Below the pieces are notes generated by a model. It had not been told where the DNA came from. It did no database searches and saw only the letters and a program-made list of their open reading frames with translations. A stretch of DNA of 64,000 nt from a virus (Duplodnaviria > Caudoviricetes). This document shows, in pieces, positions 33,101 through 47,619 of the stretch. Position 1 is the first letter of the stretch, and each line of letters begins with the position of its first letter. The stretch spans positions 53,523-117,522 of IMG/VR virus record IMGVR_UViG_2918987250_000001. The stretch is one strand, 5' to 3'. The position numbers and the translations under genes were made by a program.

Positions 33101-33465
33101 CAGGCGTTCGGGTCCGGCCGGGTCCAGCGGGTGACGACCGGGCAGGACACGCCCTCGCGGCCGCGCAGCACGTCCCGGAGCTCCGGCGGCAGGTCATCCG
33201 CGCGCAGGTCCTCGAGGATCACCGTGCCGATGAGGAGCCCGCGCAGCATCGCCACCGCCGACGGCTTCATGGCGAGCTGCTCGAGCGAGGTCTCGACGAA
33301 GTGGGTGCCGGGGAGCTGCGCGGAGTAGGCCAGCCCCTTGCGACGCACCACGACCACGGAAACGGGCACCGGCACGGAGATCTTCTCGACCGGGATGCTG
33401 CCGACCGGGATATACGCCGCGGTGACGCTGCCGAAGTTGAGCCCGGAAAGGACGGAGTCGCTCAC
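33100..33465 (-). CDS. Hypothetical protein
   Basis: GTG start overlaps the upstream stop. Confidence 0.55.
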   Translation of the reverse strand: MSDSVLSGLNFGSVTAAYIPVGSIPVEKISVPVPVSVVVVRRKGLAYSAQLPGTHFVETSLEQLAMKPSAVAMLRGLLIGTVILEDLRADDLPPELRDVLRGREGVSCPVVTRWTRPDPNA

Positions 33466-33839
33466 GACACGACCTCCCAGTCCTGGGCCAGCAGGTCGGA
33501 CTGCGAGCACAGCCACGGCACCCGGTTCTTGCAGGCCGTGAACATGAAGACGTAGGGCAGGCTCATCTTCGAGTGGGCGTCCGGCACCTGGAGCTCGAGA
33601 TACATCCCCTTGCCGTTCCAGCCGGCGCGGGCGACACGCAGGCCGGCCCGGAGCGCGGCGACAGCCTGCCCGATGTTGAGCGCGCCGTTCTTCTCGACCG
33701 CGGCGTCCTCGAAGGAGACCTTCGTCACCTTGCGCACGAGCCCGAGCTCCTCGACGGGCGGCCGAGCGTTGCGCGGGGCGAACGTGATGCTGCCGATCGT
33801 CAGATCGCCGCCGGCCTTGACCTTCATGTCCACGTTCAT
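33462..33839 (-). CDS. DUF2829 / Tad2-like anti-defence nucleotide-signal sponge
   Basis: IGQAVAALRAGLRVARAGWNGKGMYL...PWLCSQSDLLAQDW. Confidence 0.85.
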   Translation of the reverse strand: MNVDMKVKAGGDLTIGSITFAPRNARPPVEELGLVRKVTKVSFEDAAVEKNGALNIGQAVAALRAGLRVARAGWNGKGMYLELQVPDAHSKMSLPYVFMFTACKNRVPWLCSQSDLLAQDWEVVS

Positions 33840-40080: not shown

Positions 40081-40136
40081 CCATGGCCGTTATCCGCTAA
40101 AGCGCCATGTCTCCATGGCGCCAAGGCACCAAGAGG
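40081..40136. repeat. 8-bp-period array (CCWWGGCG-like) upstream of parA; candidate centromere/operator
   Basis: ccatggcc gttatccg ctaaagcg ccatgtct ccatggcg ccaaggca ccaagagg. Confidence 0.7.
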
Positions 40137-40145
40137 ATGACGGCC

Positions 40146-40799
40146 ATGCAGACCCTCGCCGTGCTCTCCCAGAAGGGAGGCGTAGGCAAATCCACGATCG
40201 CTCGCCTCATGGCGACCGCCTATGCCGGCGCCCAGTGGCGCGTGAAGATCGCCGACTTCAACGTGAAGCAGCTCACCAGCGTGGACTGGTCCGCGAGCCG
40301 CATGGCCGCCGAGATCCAGCCCGAGGTGCCGGCCGAGGCCTTCTCCAGCGTCAAGCAGGCGCTCCGGCAGAACCTCCACTACGACCTCATGGTCTTCGAC
40401 GGGAAGCCCGACTCCGACGTGACCAGCCTGGAGATCGCCCGCGAGAGCGACGTGATCCTCCTGCCGGCCGGCGTGAGCGGTGACGACCTGCGCCCGCAGG
40501 TGAAGTTCGCCCACGAGCTCGTGTCCCGCGGCGTGGACCGGGCGCGCATCCACTTCGTCATCAACAAGACCCTCGAGAGCGCAGCCTCGATCTCCGACGC
40601 CCGCGGCTTCATCGAAGCGGCCGGCTACCGGGTGCTCGCGACGGATCTACCCTCCAAGACGGGCTACCAGCTCGCGCAGAACATGGGCCGCGCCATCTCC
40701 GAGAGCGCCTTTGCCACCCTGAACGAGCGGGCCGATGCTCTGGCCCAAGAGGTCGTGGATCTCATGACCACGCACGCCGGCACGAAGAGGGTCGCCTGA
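40146..40799 (+). CDS. parA: ParA (type Ib, ParF-like) partition ATPase
   Basis: QKGGVGKST deviant Walker A; short protein with no N-terminal HTH. Confidence 0.93.
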   Translation: MQTLAVLSQKGGVGKSTIARLMATAYAGAQWRVKIADFNVKQLTSVDWSASRMAAEIQPEVPAEAFSSVKQALRQNLHYDLMVFDGKPDSDVTSLEIARESDVILLPAGVSGDDLRPQVKFAHELVSRGVDRARIHFVINKTLESAASISDARGFIEAAGYRVLATDLPSKTGYQLAQNMGRAISESAFATLNERADALAQEVVDLMTTHAGTKRVA

Positions 40800-41056
40800 T
40801 GGTCACGGCTCCCCCTCCCCCGCGCACGCTCGCCAATGCGGGTCGTCTCAAGCCCGAGAGCGCCCCGGCGCCGGCGGAAGCGCCCAAGAACCTGTCCACG
40901 TCCAACCAGGGCAAGTGGGTGCCGCTCACCTTCAAGGTCACGGAGGACGAGCGCTACGCCTACCGGCTCGAGGCTGCGAAACGGCGCATGAACCTCAAGG
41001 AGCTATTCGAGGCCGCGCTCAAGACCTACCGCGAGCAATACCCGCTCCAGGAGTGA
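40799..41056 (+). CDS. Ribbon-helix-helix centromere-binding protein (ParG-like)
   Basis: Coupled to parA; disordered N-tail plus VPLTFKV...EAAKRRMNLKELFEAAL. Confidence 0.8.
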   Translation: MVTAPPPPRTLANAGRLKPESAPAPAEAPKNLSTSNQGKWVPLTFKVTEDERYAYRLEAAKRRMNLKELFEAALKTYREQYPLQE

Positions 41057-41060
41057 CGCC

Positions 41061-41285
41061 ATGCACATGACCCACGCCGACCTGTGCGCGATCTACGCGA
41101 GGATGACGCCCGCGGAGCGGGCGGAAGCCCAAGCGGAGGCGCGCTCCAAGGGTGTTGAGGTTCACGAGCTCCTGGCCCGAGCGGTCGAGAGCCTCATCCA
41201 AGGGTATGATCGCCAGACCGTCGCGGTGCTGAAATCCTGGCATACGAGCGCCGAGCGACCGAGCGCCGTGGTGTCGAGCGTCTGA
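41061..41285 (+). CDS. Hypothetical protein
   Basis: AGGAG RBS; follows the RHH gene. Confidence 0.55.
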   Translation: MHMTHADLCAIYARMTPAERAEAQAEARSKGVEVHELLARAVESLIQGYDRQTVAVLKSWHTSAERPSAVVSSV

Positions 41286-41455
41286 GCGACCGAGAGCCGA
41301 GCGACTGAGCGCCAAGGGTCCGATCACCGGGAGTTCCGGGGCCTATCCCAAGGGTCCGGGAATATGTGCTGCCGAGACCCGAGGCATAGCCCTCGAGCAG
41401 ACGCGATTTATCTAAGACTTCGTAACTTTACGCTAACTTTTCCGCAAAACACTAT

Positions 41456-41483
41456 GCGAGCGCGCTAATGTTAACGCGCTCGC
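41456..41483 (-). terminator. Hairpin after the first GG-free gene
   Basis: GCGAGCGCG-loop-CGCGCTCGC, built without GG/CC. Confidence 0.55.
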
Positions 41484-41491
41484 TTCTAATG

Positions 41492-42187
41492 TTATGCGAA
41501 GTCTTCAAACATTAGATCATTGCACACTGCGAGAAACTGCTTTAACAGTGCGAACTCTTCGAAGCGATAATAGACGATATGTGCATTTGCGGTGCGTTGC
41601 GCTTCGCTTACATCATGCGTCTTATTCGCTAGATGCTTGACGATAGCGACGTGATAATCTTGCGCATCTTTGGTGCAAGCGAGCACTTCGACATAAACGT
41701 CTTGCATGATAAGCGCAGTGTAGCGCTCTGACATAGCGTCAACGTTATCGAGTTGCGTCGCGTCAGTGCGCATGTCAGAGAAAGCGTTAAACGCTTCTTC
41801 GTTAAAGCTGCAATCTATGCGATATTGCGCTTCGACGTTGCTAAGCGCGCGCTCTAGCGTGTGATGCACCGACGAAAGCAACACATTGATGCTTGACGCT
41901 TCGCTGTCGTTTTCGACGTAGCACGTCTCACAGATAAACGCGATGTGTTCAGCGTCGCTGAAAGTCACCGCAAAATAGTTGCTGTCGTTTTCGTTAGAGA
42001 ACGTCGCGACAGAGCACAAGTCGTTATAGTCTTGAAGCGACAGCATCACAGGTGTTTTTGTGTCGTTGAGCTTGTTATGAATGAAGCGCGCGAAGTCTAG
42101 CGCGACAACATCACGTTGCGCTTTCAGCGGTGCATCAGCGATCTCGAAAGAGACAGCATTCATCTCATGAATATCAGCGAGCGTCAT
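41492..42187 (-). CDS. Acidic early protein lacking Gly and Trp
   Basis: 231 aa with its own promoter and leader. Confidence 0.8.
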   Translation of the reverse strand: MTLADIHEMNAVSFEIADAPLKAQRDVVALDFARFIHNKLNDTKTPVMLSLQDYNDLCSVATFSNENDSNYFAVTFSDAEHIAFICETCYVENDSEASSINVLLSSVHHTLERALSNVEAQYRIDCSFNEEAFNAFSDMRTDATQLDNVDAMSERYTALIMQDVYVEVLACTKDAQDYHVAIVKHLANKTHDVSEAQRTANAHIVYYRFEEFALLKQFLAVCNDLMFEDFA

Positions 42188-42208
42188 AGCGTGTGCTTTC
42201 TGTGGTGC

Positions 42209-42267
42209 GTTGTTGACTAGAGAGTTTTACTGTCGTGCTTGTGCGGTGTCAAGTCAGCGCTGACTTA
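42209..42267 (-). promoter_or_regulatory. Early promoter with abutting operator
   Basis: Operator 42250-67, then TTGACA-17-TAAAAC-6-GTCAACAAC. Confidence 0.75.
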
Positions 42268-42681
42268 TTTCTGCGCTTCAAGCACTTTCTTCGCGCGATC
42301 AATGCGCATCACATGCGTGTGACGCTCGCGCTTGAAGCGCTCGACGTTTGCAAGATGCGCTTTATGCGTCACGTCTAGTTCAGCGGAAATCTCAGCTAGA
42401 CGCTTTTGCGATGCGTCAAGCATCGCTTGCGCGCGCTCGACTGTAAGCGCATTCTTGCGCTTGATATTGTTCGCTTCGTTTTGTTCGCGTGTCTGGTAGC
42501 GCGCGAGCTGTATTTCAGCTTTGCGCAGCATATCGACAAGCTCTTTTTGCGGTAGCGTCATCAGCTCAGCGGTGCGAGCGTTCAGCGTCAACGCGCTTGT
42601 CGCGCTCGCATTCGCTTTGCGACATTGCTCGATCATCGCTTGTTTGCGATGCGCTTTCGATGCGTTGCAGCGCTCAGTCAT
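42265..42681 (-). CDS. Coiled-coil early protein lacking Gly and Trp
   Basis: 138 aa; 33-nt leader/start duplicated with the downstream gene. Confidence 0.75.
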   Translation of the reverse strand: MTERCNASKAHRKQAMIEQCRKANASATSALTLNARTAELMTLPQKELVDMLRKAEIQLARYQTREQNEANNIKRKNALTVERAQAMLDASQKRLAEISAELDVTHKAHLANVERFKRERHTHVMRIDRAKKVLEAQK

Positions 42682-42800
42682 AGCGTTCGCTTTCTGTGGT
42701 GCGTTATTGCGCTCAGAGCGTCACACAGCGCGATGCGTGCGCGTGTCGCTTCGTCGGTGCGCAGAGACGCGCGAAGCGTCTCTGCGGTCGAATGTGAGCG

Positions 42801-43421
42801 CTAGAGCGCGACGCTCAGAGCTTTCGCGAGACGCTTCGTCGTCGGTGCGTCTTTGTTGAGCGTGTAAGCAACTTCGTTCTTGTCGTCGCGCGTCTCTTTG
42901 AGCACGTCGAACATTTGCAGAGCGTTGATGCTAGAGCTTGATTGCGTGTCTGCGGTGCTCGCTGCGATCGAACGCGCATAGCGCACGATATGCGCAGACT
43001 TGTGCGCGTCGCACCGCAAATCAGAGCAGAGCGACGCTTGCGCGTCAGCGTGCGTCATCGACAGCTTTTCTTTGGTCAGCTTCAGCGCAGTGAGAAACAC
43101 ACAGCGCGTGTAATTGTTGAGCGTGTCAGCTTGCGCAGCGCTTCGCGCAATGTTTGCGACTTTCTGCGCAGCGTAGACGTTGAAGCGCTTGTTCTTACGC
43201 TCATGTCTGTTGATGAAGTCAGCGTTGACGTTTGCGGTGTGCATCACGCTAACGACAGCTTCGTGCGAGAAATCTTTCGCGAGATTGCTGAGCGTCTTTT
43301 GAATGTTGTCGTTGTCGGTGTTCTGCGCTTTCTCGTAAGCAGCGCGTGCGCTGATCGAAGTCTGAAGCGCGACGCTGTAGTTATTGAGCGCGTCGATCTG
43401 CTGCGCGTTGAGCTTCGTCAT
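42801..43421 (-). CDS. Early protein lacking Gly and Trp; paralog of 45667-46593
   Basis: Shares NIQKTL, ANV..FINR, R(F/Y)NVYA..KVA and TA.TQ.SS...AL with the paralog. Confidence 0.85.
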   Translation of the reverse strand: MTKLNAQQIDALNNYSVALQTSISARAAYEKAQNTDNDNIQKTLSNLAKDFSHEAVVSVMHTANVNADFINRHERKNKRFNVYAAQKVANIARSAAQADTLNNYTRCVFLTALKLTKEKLSMTHADAQASLCSDLRCDAHKSAHIVRYARSIAASTADTQSSSSINALQMFDVLKETRDDKNEVAYTLNKDAPTTKRLAKALSVAL

Positions 43422-44075
43422 AACTGTGTCTCTCTCTCGTTTGTGGTGTGTTTGTCGTGTCGTTGTTGACGAGAGTTAGAATAGCGATCTGCGAGAGAGG
43501 CACAAGCGTCAAATGATAGAAAAACCGAAAAAAGTCAGTTCGCGCTGATTTTTTCCGAAAAACGCATTTTCTCGCGTTTTCGGTCAAAAAGTCAGTTGAC
43601 GCTGATCTGCGTGCGTGTATACTCAAGACATCAGAGAGAGACAGAGAGCTAGACAGATGAAACGAAGTTGACCGCAGAGCACCGCAGAAGAAAATCAGAA
43701 AAAGCGACGCGCTCGACTAGACAACAAGCGAGCAAGCGTGTAGCTTGACCATAGAGCAGACGACTCGACAGCGACGCACGACCCCAGACTGGGGCCGGGT
43801 GCGGGCGCGGCTGGCTCGGCGCCGCCCGCCCATGGGGCAGCCATGGGAAGCCGTGGCTCAGGCCGTTCCGAATTTTCCCGACAGCCGTTCCTAATTTCCG
43901 CGCCCCAGATTTTCGCACCGGTCCCATGGCATCCCGAGGCGCTCCACGGCGACCGGACCCATGGCGCCCCACGCGACACCCATGGGAGAGCCGGAGATGG
44001 TCCATGGCGCCCCATGCAGCTCCACGGGTCTCCCATGGCGTCCCATACTCTCCCATGGGGGAATGCACGCACGCG

Positions 44076-44101
44076 AAAAGCGCGCTGGGGCTCAGCGCGC
44101 T
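44076..44101 (-). terminator. Rho-independent terminator
   Basis: AGCGCGCTGAGCCCCAGCGCGCTTTT on the minus strand. Confidence 0.7.
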
Positions 44102-44112
44102 CATCTGGGGCT

Positions 44113-44409
44113 CTACTCGGCGAGCAGGGCTTGCTGGCGCATCAGCTTCGCGTGACGCTGCTGCGAGCGGTTCATGCGGCGATCGAGGCGCGACTTGGCG
44201 TAGAGCATCTTCTGGCGATGCGCGCGCAGCGCTGCGGGGCAGGTCTCGTCGGTGGTGATGAGCGAGAGCTCGTGCTTGGCGCGACGCATGGCGACTTGCA
44301 GCTCGTTCGAGTGGGCTCGCTGGGCGCGCACGGTCTCGTCGTTGACGACTTCGAGGTAATCGGCGCACTGGGCGAAGCGAAGGGCGATCTGCTTGATGAA
44401 CTTCGTCAT
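44113..44409 (-). CDS. Basic early protein lacking Gly and Trp
   Basis: 98 aa with own promoter and terminator; no GG on the coding strand. Confidence 0.75.
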   Translation of the reverse strand: MTKFIKQIALRFAQCADYLEVVNDETVRAQRAHSNELQVAMRRAKHELSLITTDETCPAALRAHRQKMLYAKSRLDRRMNRSQQRHAKLMRQQALLAE

Positions 44410-44449
44410 GGTCGGCACTTGCTCTCTTGTCTAGCAGCGGTGTCGCTGC

Positions 44450-44492
44450 GTTGTTGACAAGTATGTTTTAGCAAGTGCGCAGAGTTTTGTGC
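44450..44492 (-). promoter_or_regulatory. Early promoter, GCACAA class
   Basis: GCACAA-16-TAAAAC-6-GTCAACAAC. Confidence 0.75.
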
Positions 44493-44695
44493 GCGGAGCG
44501 TTATGGCAATACTTGCACGGCACTGGGGCTGTATGGGCGTCCGGGAGCGGATGTGCGGCTGTGGGGTTGCTCGAGGCCGAGAGGCAGTGGACCGCGTCGA
44601 GGCCTAGCGGATCGAGGTCCTCCCATGGCCGGTAGGCCTACAGGCCTGGCCTAGAGGCCTGCATCCATGGCCTGCCATGGGGAGGCTTGGTCACG

Positions 44696-44724
44696 AGAAG
44701 AGAGCGCACGGGGCGCTCTCTCTT
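44696..44724 (-). terminator. Hairpin terminator
   Basis: AGAGAGCGC-loop-GCGCTCTCT directly after the stop at 44730. Confidence 0.6.
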
Positions 44725-44729
44725 GGGGC

Positions 44730-45344
44730 TTAGGCAGCAGCGGTGCGGTAGTCTTGCGGAATCGTCTCGTGGACGACGAGCGCGTTCGCGTCGCTCTCGG
44801 TCACGAGGATCTGCGACAGACCCCAGGTCGTGCTCTCGAGGGAGATGTAGGTGACGGGCTCGTTCACAGCGGGGTCGAAGTCGCTGTTGACGCGCACGGC
44901 GGTCGTCGGGTCTGCGAGGAACGCATTGGCGATGCGATCGACTTCACCGGAGAGCTGGGCGCGCAAGCTGGGCGCATACTGGGGATCGTTCTTGTAGATG
45001 GGGTCGCTCTCGGCGTGCATCTTCTCTTCGCAGTCGAAGACGATCGTCATGGACTCGCGGAGCTGCGCGACAGCTTCTTCGACGGTCTCGAACGCGAGGA
45101 TCGTCGTGTTGTCAGGACCGCAGTCGAGATAGGCGAACAGCGTCTTGGACGCGCTCGCAGCGATCAGCGCATGGGTGCGCTCGTTGGTCTCGTAGATGCA
45201 CTCGTCGTCGCTCAGGTCTTCGTGGGGCGACGTGTTGCAGGTCACGCTCGGGCACGCATTCTCGCGCTCTGTGAGCGTCACGCTGATGTCGAGGTAGGTG
45301 AAGGTCTCGGCGTTGGTGATGGTGGTGTTCTTGGTGATCGTCAT
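44730..45344 (-). CDS. Acidic early protein (only 3 Gly, all GGT)
   Basis: 204 aa with own promoter and terminator. Confidence 0.8.
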   Translation of the reverse strand: MTITKNTTITNAETFTYLDISVTLTERENACPSVTCNTSPHEDLSDDECIYETNERTHALIAASASKTLFAYLDCGPDNTTILAFETVEEAVAQLRESMTIVFDCEEKMHAESDPIYKNDPQYAPSLRAQLSGEVDRIANAFLADPTTAVRVNSDFDPAVNEPVTYISLESTTWGLSQILVTESDANALVVHETIPQDYRTAAA

Positions 45345-45366
45345 GTCGCTCTCTCTGGTGCAGCTC

Positions 45367-45409
45367 GTTGCTGACAATCTCGTTATAGCGATGCTCTCTT
45401 GCTTTGTGC
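45367..45409 (-). promoter_or_regulatory. Early promoter, GCACAA class
   Basis: GCACAA-16-TATAAC-6-GTCAGCAAC. Confidence 0.75.
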
Positions 45410-45630
45410 GCGGCGAGGTATGGGCGCTCTAGGATCGCTCAGGAGCGCTGGGACCGGTCTGGGAGCGGGGAACGCCGCCCCATGGGGCTCCTCGGGGCTC
45501 CACGGCCGCCCACGGCGATCCATGGACGCCTCCCATGGGGAGCCACGGGCGGCCCACGGGCTCCCATGGGTCTCGTGCGCTGGGGCGCCCCAGCCGTTCC
45601 TATTTTTCCCATGGGCGGATTCGATCACGA

Positions 45631-45656
45631 GAAAGGGGAGCCCCGTGAGGCTCCCC
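45631..45656 (-). terminator. Rho-independent terminator
   Basis: GGGGAGCCTCACGGGGCTCCCCTTTC on the minus strand. Confidence 0.75.
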
Positions 45657-45666
45657 AGACTGTCGA

Positions 45667-46593
45667 TCAGGCGGCGCGGGCGAAGAGCACTTCCTCGAGA
45701 CGCTGCACGATGGGGCTGTCCGTCAGCGTGAAGGTGGGGTTGCGGCTCGATCCCTCGCGCTTGACGATCCCGAGGGTCTCGAGGGCCTGCATGGTGGAGG
45801 ATGCCTGGGTCGGCGCGGTGCCGGCGCTCACGGTGTGCCGGACCAGGTGCTTGCGGATCGCGAGGTCGATGTGGTGCTTGTCGGAGGCGCACGCCTTGGC
45901 GACCTCACCGGTGAAGGGCAGCCCTGCCTTTCGCATCTGGAAGAGCGAGACCATGCAGGCCCGGTTGATCGCGTTGGAGACGACCCCGTCCGCCAGCGCC
46001 TTCACAGCGTCCGCGACCTTGTCGATGGCGTAGACGTTGTAGCGGCTGCCGTCGTGGAGCGTGCGGTTGATGAAGGACGGATCCACGTTCGCAGCGAGCA
46101 TCACGCGGCTCGTGTCCTTCCACATGAGCTGCTTGCGGACCTTGTTGAGGGTCTTCTGGATGTTGTGGCCCGCGCCCTTCTTCGCCAGCTCGAAGCTCTC
46201 ACGGGCGTTGATCGAGGCGGTGATGGAGAGCGTCATGCTCTGGACCGCAGCGTCATCGAAGGCACGCATCGCCTCGGCGAAGGTCTTGGGCTCTTCAGCG
46301 GTGTCGGGCTCGTCGCTCACGGCCGGCTCCTCGTGGACCTCCTCGGCCTGCTCTTGGAGGAGATCGGCCTCGGCCGAGAGGACCTGCGCCTCGGTGTCGT
46401 CGAGATCGCTCATGGAGAGCGAGGCGAGGGCGGCGTCCAGCTCGTCGGTGACGGCGAAGGTCTGGGCGAGAGAGGCGGCGCGGTCCTCGTAGCGCATGTG
46501 GTCGGTGAAGTCGGAGACGTGCTGGGCGAACGAACCCTCGAGCACGACAGCGGCGACCGGGGCGAGCTTCTTGGAAACAGACTTGCGAGCCAT
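45667..46593 (-). CDS. Early protein with acidic N-extension and C-terminal domain paralogous to 42801-43421 (possible wHTH)
   Basis: MARKSVSKK start; normal genome codon usage. Confidence 0.85.
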   Translation of the reverse strand: MARKSVSKKLAPVAAVVLEGSFAQHVSDFTDHMRYEDRAASLAQTFAVTDELDAALASLSMSDLDDTEAQVLSAEADLLQEQAEEVHEEPAVSDEPDTAEEPKTFAEAMRAFDDAAVQSMTLSITASINARESFELAKKGAGHNIQKTLNKVRKQLMWKDTSRVMLAANVDPSFINRTLHDGSRYNVYAIDKVADAVKALADGVVSNAINRACMVSLFQMRKAGLPFTGEVAKACASDKHHIDLAIRKHLVRHTVSAGTAPTQASSTMQALETLGIVKREGSSRNPTFTLTDSPIVQRLEEVLFARAA

Positions 46594-46797
46594 TTGTTTG
46601 TCGATCCTTATCTGATGAAGCACTGCGCTTCGTTTCGACAAGTATCGTTATGACGACTCCAATACCCGGTTGCACTTGGCACGTTATGGGGATTTGCGAT
46701 TACTTATGGGAGCCGGAGCCCTCGGCAGCCCATGGCGTTCCATGGGGAGGCGCGGATCGTGAGGGGCCGGGAATAGTCGTGCCCTAGCTCCAAAACG

Positions 46798-46856
46798 CCA
46801 TCGGCCTGTTCTTAGATATATACCTTTAGAGAAGTAGATACATAACAGGCCGATGG
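46798..46856. repeat. AT-rich core (35 nt) flanked by 12-bp inverted repeat, copy 3
   Basis: CCATCGGCCTGT-[AT-rich]-ACAGGCCGATGG-ACTTGG. Confidence 0.9.
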
Positions 46857-47619
46857 ACTTGGGAATCCAACCCCGGCTCGGGAATCCATGGGTCTCGGTG
46901 AGGGAGAGATGGGTCCGGCTCTGAGTGAGCGGCACCGGTCCATGGAGACCCGAGGGCTCCCATGGCTTGCGAGGCTCCGGCACCCGCGGCCGTTCCTAAA
47001 TTCGGGAAGGCTTGACCGGGACCGGACCGGGTCTCTGACATTCGAGGGGCGCCAATCCCTCGCACTCACCGGTCCGGTCGCAGCGTCAACAACGCCAGAG
47101 CACCACAGAGAGACAGGGTGCAGGAGCGCATCGGCGAACGCGCTCAACTGACGCTGTGATCTATGACGACCCCGCGCGAATTTTTCAAATGGCGTCGCAA
47201 GGCGTGAAAACGGGCTCGTGCGTGGAGATTGGGTGCGGCCGGCCTCTCGCGTGTTTCCCAGGCTCTCGATCTCTCTAGGCACTCTCTGCGCATTCTCTGT
47301 GAGGCACCTCTCTATGGGCTCACACAGGCACACGGGCTCTCTCTAGGGGCTGCCTCTCTCACACACCTGTCCCCGTATGCGCTCTATGCGTCGGAGCTGC
47401 TCTCTAGGGGTCGTGTGTGCTCTTCTCTCTCTGTGACGCGCTCTCTGGTGCGTGCTCTCGCTCTCTATGCGGGCGTGCTCTCTGGTGCGCGACGTTGCTC
47501 TGTGAGCGCTCTCTCTAGCGTCGTGCGTGTCGTTGCTCGTTCTCGTGCGTGCTGATGCTCAGCGGTCGATTTTGGTGAGGGTGGTCGGTTTGTCCAGAAA
47601 TGCGCAAAACGGGTTTCTG

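Follow-up and report, generated by a model that had tools for sequence, protein, structure and literature searches.

The 64,000-nucleotide window analyzed here (bases 53523-117522 of an IMG/VR virus record with a length of 117,522) carries on its minus strand two genes whose products are related but differ in amino acid composition. The short gene (42801..43421) encodes 206 amino acids (aa) with no Gly, one Pro, and no Trp (isoelectric point, pI, 9.3) and is the anchor gene of an island nearly devoid of GG and CC (41394..43780). The long gene (45667..46593) encodes 308 aa with 10 Gly, 9 Pro, and 1 Trp and is unconstrained for GG/CC, though placed between constrained units. The start of the long gene was set at the ATG at 46593, in agreement with the N termini of its homologs; the open frame reaches back to a TTG at 46641. 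Residues 1 to 104 of its product form an acidic extension (pI 4.2) of low model confidence, which the short copy lacks, and residues 105 to 308 carry the fold of the short copy with a pI of 9.7. The long gene appears to be monocistronic because a terminator-like hairpin on the same strand (45635..45656) directly follows it. A BLASTP comparison of the two products showed 61/192 identities (32%), 52% positives, and 4 gaps (E = 6e-27), and the aligned part of the long product was its C-terminal region of about 200 aa (192 residues). A preliminary description of this DNA had aligned the two products by eye. The pairwise alignment was significant and contained all of the motif pairs quoted there (NIQKTL in both, ANVNADFINR/ANVDPSFINR, RFNVYAAQKVA/RYNVYAIDKVA, and the TQSSSS/TQASST helix), together with all of the Gly replacements, written long/short (HDGSR/RKNKR, KAGLP/KEKLS, TGEVA/THADA, SAGTA/AASTA, and TLGIV/MFDVL). 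As judged from this alignment, the two products are true, ancient paralogs.

AlphaFold modelled the short copy with a predicted local distance difference test score of 91.8 and the long copy with a score of >90 over residues 105 to 308. In both models, the N-terminal part is helical and the C-terminal part forms a winged helix, and the helices and strands of the two corresponded one to one. The DSSP assignments for the short copy were helices at residues 103-117, 124-131, and 154-170 and strands at residues 121-122, 174-178, and 184-188; in the long copy, the equivalent elements ran from the helix at 208-222 through the strand at 286-290. The order of helix 1, strand, helix 2, helix 3 (recognition), and hairpin wing, by which the winged helix-turn-helix superfamily is defined, was found in both models. 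The recognition helix opens with a nearly invariant T-x-x-T-Q-(S/A)-S-S motif, and the residues invariant in both families (T156, T159, Q160, S162, and S163) lie at the start of this helix (154-170). In structural searches with VIA-align, the short copy matched best to 6pco_A (Z 8.0; root-mean-square deviation, rmsd, 3.5; 83 residues aligned) and the long copy to 2qvo_A (Z 9.1; rmsd 2.8; 84 residues aligned). The match lists consisted almost wholly of MarR, PadR, ArsR, Fur, histone H1, ORC, kleisin, and TubR winged helices. The assignment of the C-terminal 100 or so residues to the winged-helix fold class is thus well supported by the predicted models. Because the Z values are moderate, no family membership was derived from the fold. 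Foldseek returned no match against the PDB at an E value of 0.001 or below. Searches of Pfam, NCBIfam, and PDB sequences gave no match for either copy or for a 41-sequence profile, and curated families with this fold (MarR, PadR, HTH_5/ArsR, and HxlR) were not among the hits. PHROGs returned only weak matches to families of unknown function, and the Atlas look-alikes of the proteins were all unnamed clusters. No relative of the N-terminal helical part was identified in the fold and family searches. A winged helix had been guessed in the preliminary description, and the fold searches support this for both the short copy (Z 8.0) and the long copy (Z 9.1); the predicted fold is the same in the Gly-bearing and the Gly-free protein.

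The island contains a promoter region, leaders, three genes, and a terminator. Its start lies upstream of the short gene's promoter-like leader, and it ends past a terminator-like hairpin of 12 pairs (41456..41483, minus strand), which itself lacks GG and CC and closes the unit 9 bases after the last stop codon. On the plus strand, the island has 21 GG and 9 CC, compared with roughly 150 to 190 expected for each, at about 50% G+C; GC and CG stay abundant. No other such stretch is present in the whole 117.5-kb genome, and the borders between the neighboring GG/CC-rich arrays and this unit are sharp. The two further genes of the island, both on the minus strand and both without Gly, encode an acidic protein of 231 aa (41492..42187; pI 4.5) and a basic protein of 138 aa (42265..42681; pI 10.1), for neither of which the Pfam, PHROGs, NCBIfam, and PDB sequence searches gave a known family. 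Each of the three island genes has 0 to 2 GG across codon borders, compared with 39 in the long gene. Third-position choices follow the same pattern (GCC, 0 versus 27; TCC, 0 versus 9), and the non-coding leader, promoter region, and terminator of the island are likewise free of GG and CC. Because the two dinucleotides are lacking in every codon phase, between codons, and outside coding sequence, the ban acts on nucleic acid, and the loss of Gly, Pro, and Trp from the short copy is a by-product. The earlier proposal that a constraint on the nucleic acid, not the fold, caused the loss of Gly is thereby upheld, since the two models share one fold and GG is missing between codons and outside genes.

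Several further features of the island were observed. The leaders of the GG-free genes (42188-42215, 42682-42709, 43422-43470, and 44419-44458) share a GTCAACAACG-like motif, and they have AGAAAG or AGAGAG runs at the place of a GGAG-type ribosome-binding site, where ordinary genes of the relatives have AAGGAG. The best sigma-70-like match of the region (43596-43623, plus strand; TTGACG, 16 nucleotides, TATACT) lies inside the island leader and points away from the island into the adjacent array, which may indicate divergent or antisense transcription. In the public run X7, a related element keeps the short paralog and has both of the other island genes (window positions 41420-42555) replaced. 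The 30 bases of the replacement sequence that were examined contained no GG or CC; therefore, the cargo of the island is swappable under the same rule.

The relation between Gly content and DNA context was examined in 41 relatives or clusters of the short family (40 to 78% identity) and in the long family, which has >280 relatives and for which composition was taken from 120 proteins; a joint profile of both families retrieved 473 proteins from a library of 1.8 billion. In the short family, Gly was absent from 29/41 (maximum, 3), Trp from 41/41, and Pro from 27/41, compared with a median of 13 Gly (range, 8 to 21) in the long family. The Gly columns that are 91 to 100% conserved in the long family (residues 182, 203, 224, 275, and 281) are occupied in the short family by N (35/41), A, D/E, N/D, and R (41/41), respectively, and the Pro columns that are 79 to 92% conserved (residues 172, 261, 286, and 294) by A, D/S, E/N, and A/K. 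Three proteins break the rule that clade determines composition. P0248 groups with the short clade, yet its gene is in GG-rich DNA and the protein contains 8 Gly and 7 Pro; P0229 and P0254 have the long-type helix motif, yet they lie within islands, with Gly counts of 0 and 3, respectively. At least two changes of Gly state were required by a maximum-likelihood tree of 99 domain sequences. This tree comprised all short-family rows, 8 special cases, 45 random long-family rows, and 6 rows from the window and phage loci, with about 175 long-family rows left out; two Rhizobium-phage island proteins stood on very long branches, and their placement is unsure. Because of the three exceptions to the clade rule, this sequence comparison shows the Gly-free state following DNA context rather than clade.

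The short genes of L001 (7944-8552) and L006 (2033-2641) were a special case. They have 15 to 16 cross-codon GG and 30 to 34 xCC codons, and the protein has 2 Gly, 1 Pro, and no Trp. Because their silent positions have re-equilibrated to GG/CC-rich usage, these genes read as cases in which the ban was recently lifted and the protein lags behind as a relic. The preliminary description had made its explanation depend on whether Gly content varies with genomic position. Such a dependence was found in P0248, P0229, and P0254; in L001 and L006, the expectation failed in that the protein holds only 2 Gly in GG-containing DNA, and it stood in that the silent sites suggest a relic of a lifted ban.

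Synteny was conserved among the relatives. An island of 0.7 to 1.7 kb surrounds the short gene in 10/12 related loci, often with that gene alone, and the long copy lies 1 to 3.5 kb from the short copy, on either strand, in every locus with enough flank. The Rhizobium-isolated phages RHph_X66, RHph_N1_15, and B1VFA share this synteny, and their islands encode a product of 189 to 199 aa. The translated island products of RHph_X66 and RHph_N1_15 (189 and 190 aa) contain no Gly, Pro, or Trp; they were missed by tblastn and matched the hidden Markov model of the short family with E values of 6e-17 and 1e-11, respectively.

The spacers around the two paralogous genes are rich in CC-N2-GG sites. Twelve sites (8 of them CCATGG), phased at about 10.5 bp, lie upstream of the island (43830..44058), and three CCATGG sites (44623..44680) lie in the spacer between two genes described below. 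Helically phased arrays lie on either side of the long gene, one of 10 sites, nine of them at 10- to 13-bp steps, between it and the next gene downstream (45480..45614) and one of 9 sites upstream (46720..46989). Altogether, the four spacers have 34 CC-N2-GG sites at steps of 10, 20 to 21, and 30 to 31 bases and 21/36 of the CCATGG copies in the genome. The phasing R of the arrays was 0.55 to 0.64 at periods of 10.3 to 11 bp, compared with a maximum of 0.48 in 1000 random placements. Arrays were found directly beside the long gene and at the island edge in every related locus, and a promoter-like element and a conserved leader motif come after each of them. The RHph_X66/B1VFA lineage has CCTAGG as the core and S-TQK in the helix of the long copy; CCATGG occurs with P-TQA, a hint from two lineages that array core and helix co-vary. 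Across all relatives examined, cultured Rhizobium phages included, the comparisons show the pair, the island, and the phased arrays as a conserved module.

A second tier of constraint was found upstream of the island in two minus-strand genes. The gene at 44113..44418 encodes 101 aa without Gly, and its sense strand has 0 GG and 30 CC; the gene at 44730..45377 encodes an acidic protein of 215 aa (pI 4.2), and its sense strand has 5 GG and 60 CC. Genes of this type, five of them in four lineages, lie on the plus strand in B1VFA and L024 and on the minus strand in L012 and in the window. Because GG is banned from the sense strand in either orientation, the rule follows the sense strand and not a fixed DNA strand. 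This points to the template strand or RNA as what is read, and a reader of double-stranded DNA of the protospacer-adjacent-motif or operator type does not explain the second tier. The assignment of the L001 and L006 short genes to this tier was ruled out by their 15 to 16 cross-codon GG, the ban being lifted there. A third stretch (47379-47578), in which no gene was called with confidence, is almost without CC on the plus strand and may represent an RNA or another sense-GG-free unit.

The closest named relatives of the element are circular plasmids of about 117 kb, namely Methylobacterium pAMS5a (NZ_CP090351), Sinorhizobium pLM21S1, and a plasmid of Shinella. Their gene content includes RepC, ParA, DnaE, terminase, capsid, and lambda-like tail genes, and pLM21S1 has been described as a plasmid-like prophage akin to Rhizobium phage RHEph10 (PMC5537653, PMC4447125). 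Because plasmid relatives thus combine RepC/ParA with terminase, capsid, and tail genes and one of them is a plasmid-like prophage, the element is a siphovirus-type phage-plasmid of Alphaproteobacteria. In the window, the ParA gene (40107-40799, plus strand) is followed by open reading frames (ORFs) of 85 and 74 aa, and the genes of this stretch (40081-41285) converge on the island. The 85-aa ORF looks ribbon-helix-helix-like by eye. In the cluster on the terminase side, a Pfam scan of all but one small ORF identified an ABC ATPase, a Tad2-like protein, and two ParB_N proteins; no modification enzyme was among the matches. The Tad2-like gene (33465-33839, minus strand; 125 aa) matched the Pfam family Tad2-like (Thoeris anti-defense 2-like) with an E value of 4e-22 and sits within the ParB_N/ABC-ATPase cluster upstream of the terminase genes.

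Many palindromes are strongly shunned in the whole genome. GTAC occurs 0 times versus 118 expected, and the hexamers GTCGAC (0 observed/85 expected), GACGTC (0/50), CAGCTG (0/43), CCCGGG (0/42), CACGTG (0/31), and TGATCA (0/31) are absent. About 15 palindromic hexamers are missing in all, including CCCGGG, GGGCCC, TCCGGA, and TGGCCA. Plasmid pAMS5a shuns a different subset, which includes GTAC, CACGTG, and CCCGGG but not CAGCTG, GACGTC, or GGGCCC. This avoidance looks like host-specific purging of restriction sites, as in an unmodified phage under restriction pressure.

On the basis of the predicted fold and these comparisons, we interpret the paralogs as a family of uncharacterized, putatively DNA-binding proteins of RHEph10-like siphophages and phage-plasmids of Alphaproteobacteria. 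The pair probably acts as array-binding regulators with one DNA-binding activity and two expression regimes. Both copies would bind the CC-N2-GG arrays in front of early-region promoters. The short copy would be expressed from a unit beyond the reach of an agent that reads GG/CC, for example, during the activity of that agent or in the minutes just after entry, and the long copy would be made from ordinary DNA at other times, its acidic tail adding a regulatory or partner-binding part. Several points weigh against this interpretation. Fold Z-scores of 7 to 9 can also be reached through a common arrangement, the co-variation of array core with helix comes from two lineages only, and a reader of double-stranded DNA fails to account for the ban on sense-strand GG alone in either gene orientation. 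In addition, the arrays could serve another protein, given the CCATGG sites at the start of parA (40081 and 40113) and the small ORF after it. As to the agent, the purging of CCCGGG, GGGCCC, TCCGGA, and TGGCCA speaks against a CC-directed modification that protects virion DNA; this candidate is weakened in that the genome purges CC/GG palindromes like an unmodified phage.

A more specific and tentative proposal is that the island and the sense-GG-free genes form a transcription-competent safe zone, with the short copy as the stand-in regulator under the regime of the agent; we regard this as possible rather than probable. The agent would act on template-strand CC or RNA GG of all other DNA in the infected cell, and expression would remain possible only from units that lack this target. 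Candidates are a frequent-cutting nickase, an enzyme that makes lesions or marks, or a GG-specific RNase, of phage or host origin. The short copy would bind the arrays and switch on other early genes, or keep them off, until the long copy is made. Two raw RNA runs with the same species label contained no matching reads, and two contig runs contained related DNA only.

Other explanations for the pair were weighed against the array-binding regulators. Plasmid maintenance, in which the pair would be TubR- or initiator-like proteins binding a centromere or origin on the phased arrays and the short copy a copy-control or incompatibility variant, we consider unlikely. The confinement of the arrays to one 4-kb locus beside parA, instead of a spread over many promoters, suits such a role, as does their 10-bp phasing, which resembles that of centromere arrays, and TubR and ORC/Cdc6 winged helices occur among the fold matches (3m8e_A, Z 7.0; C. 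botulinum phage TubR, probability 0.89). However, the initiator of the relatives is RepC, and their ParA has a small ORF of its own downstream; the annotation of pAMS5a lists no TubZ-like gene; the models predict a single winged helix per protein and not two as in iteron initiators; and a promoter-like element and a gene come after each array. The sharp borders between arrays and island could instead reflect self-insulation, whereby this family or another array-binding protein reads CC/GG half-sites, spreads, and silences, and the unit of the short gene was purged to escape it. The removal of GG from one strand abolishes every CC-Nx-GG palindrome, which would fit the second tier, and CCATGG outside the locus occurs at about half the Markov expectation (15 versus 28.9). 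Nevertheless, this explanation seems quite improbable, since only about 7 CC-N2-GG sites per kb arise by chance, the removal of which would cost much less than that of about 90 GG per kb, and since the host chromosome would be coated as well.

The role of the short copy could also lie in anti-defense, as a first-expressed inhibitor or decoy directed against a host defense, with the long copy doing an ordinary job. Within a unit seemingly built to escape a sequence-reading agent, the short copy is the gene that stays constant, and its island neighbors are variable, small, acidic or basic, and of no known family, as in anti-defense loci. We nevertheless find this improbable, because both families keep the recognition-helix motif unchanged, in line with a shared nucleic acid ligand, and because the short protein, with a pI of 9.3, is basic and is without a match in Pfam, PHROGs, or NCBIfam. 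A cause at the level of protein or tRNA, by which Gly, Pro, and Trp would be avoided for the sake of the protein or to spare the tRNAs that read GGN, CCN, and UGG, with the DNA pattern secondary, is highly improbable. The three missing amino acids do have GG/CC codons, and the corresponding anticodons hold CC/GG; however, GG and CC are absent across codons, in the third positions of GCC (0 versus 27) and TCC (0 versus 9), and in non-coding parts, and the silent sites were the first to relax in L001 and L006. A codon- or tRNA-level cause was rejected on the cross-codon and non-coding absence of GG/CC.

The pair amounts to a natural control experiment, in which one fold is written both in ordinary code and in GG/CC-free code. 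It indicates that Gly, Pro, and Trp are dispensable to a winged-helix protein, their place at turns being taken by Asn, Asp, Ala, and Arg; Glu likewise occurs at Gly or Pro columns of the long family. The ban has been held by selection as long as the phage group has existed, and where it is lifted, silent sites relax first. RHEph10, RHph_X66, and B1VFA were cultured on Rhizobium, and the GG/CC reader is therefore open to direct test. If the agent is a defense or a phage weapon that reads a dinucleotide, it would be of a kind not yet described in the literature searched. If the island is indeed a safe zone, the recoded pair would give first access to a new, dinucleotide-reading layer of phage-host conflict. 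The family, the island, the pair, and the arrays were not described in any paper retrieved by literature searches on pLM21S1, RHEph10, B1VFA, GG depletion, and lack of glycine. New in the present analysis are the cases of reversal and relic, the inclusion of cultured Rhizobium phages, the sense-strand rule that holds in either orientation, the statistics on phasing, and the argument from palindrome avoidance.

Among known systems, the MarR/PadR/ArsR-SmtB regulators (AF1382, 2qvo; RosR, 6ez1; BpsR, 6pco) share with the paralogs the order of helix, strand, helix, helix, and wing, the best structural matches (Z 8.0 to 9.1), and a basic domain. Unlike them, the paralogs have a 20-residue insert before the recognition helix and a helical N-terminal part of about 95 residues and show no sequence match to them, and one copy is nearly without Gly, Pro, and Trp. 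The domain of T4 MotA is likewise a phage winged-helix-like domain, which redirects the host polymerase after entry, and it matches at the fold level (1bja_B, Z 7.0). This activity is akin to the licensing of transcription proposed for the pair in the preliminary description, but no sequence relation exists, and no AsiA-like partner was identified. Iteron initiators (RepA/pi) have two tandem winged-helix domains and bind iterons of about 20 bp at the origin. In contrast, one winged helix is predicted per protein here, the sites are 6-bp palindromes at 10-bp steps, and the relatives carry RepC. TubR, of the type III partition systems of phage-plasmids, also combines a winged helix with adjacent short phased repeat arrays, whereas here the match is at the fold level only (Z 7.0) and a ParA system is present instead; no TubZ/FtsZ-like product was found in the Prokaryotic Genome Annotation Pipeline annotation of pAMS5a, in which many genes are labeled hypothetical.

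The leading or first-step-transfer DNA of T5 and T7 and the avoidance of restriction sites or protospacer-adjacent motifs resemble the island in that a small, early-looking gene block lacks a short DNA word; palindrome avoidance of the classical type is likewise seen in the present genome. The T5 first-step-transfer DNA is situated within the terminal repeat, at whichever end goes into the cell first. It is without sites that host nucleases read, and a counterpart is found here in the near absence of GG/CC over 2.4 kb. Phages B1VFA and V1VFA-S were reported, without coordinates, to have T5-like direct terminal repeats of 3.6 to 3.9 kb (PMC12509600), a length close to the 4 kb or so of the island plus second tier here; the records of the two phages contain no repeat feature near the island. 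Unlike T5, T7, or site avoidance, the present system bans a whole dinucleotide on both strands, which removes three amino acids, and has a second tier in which the ban is restricted to the sense strand.

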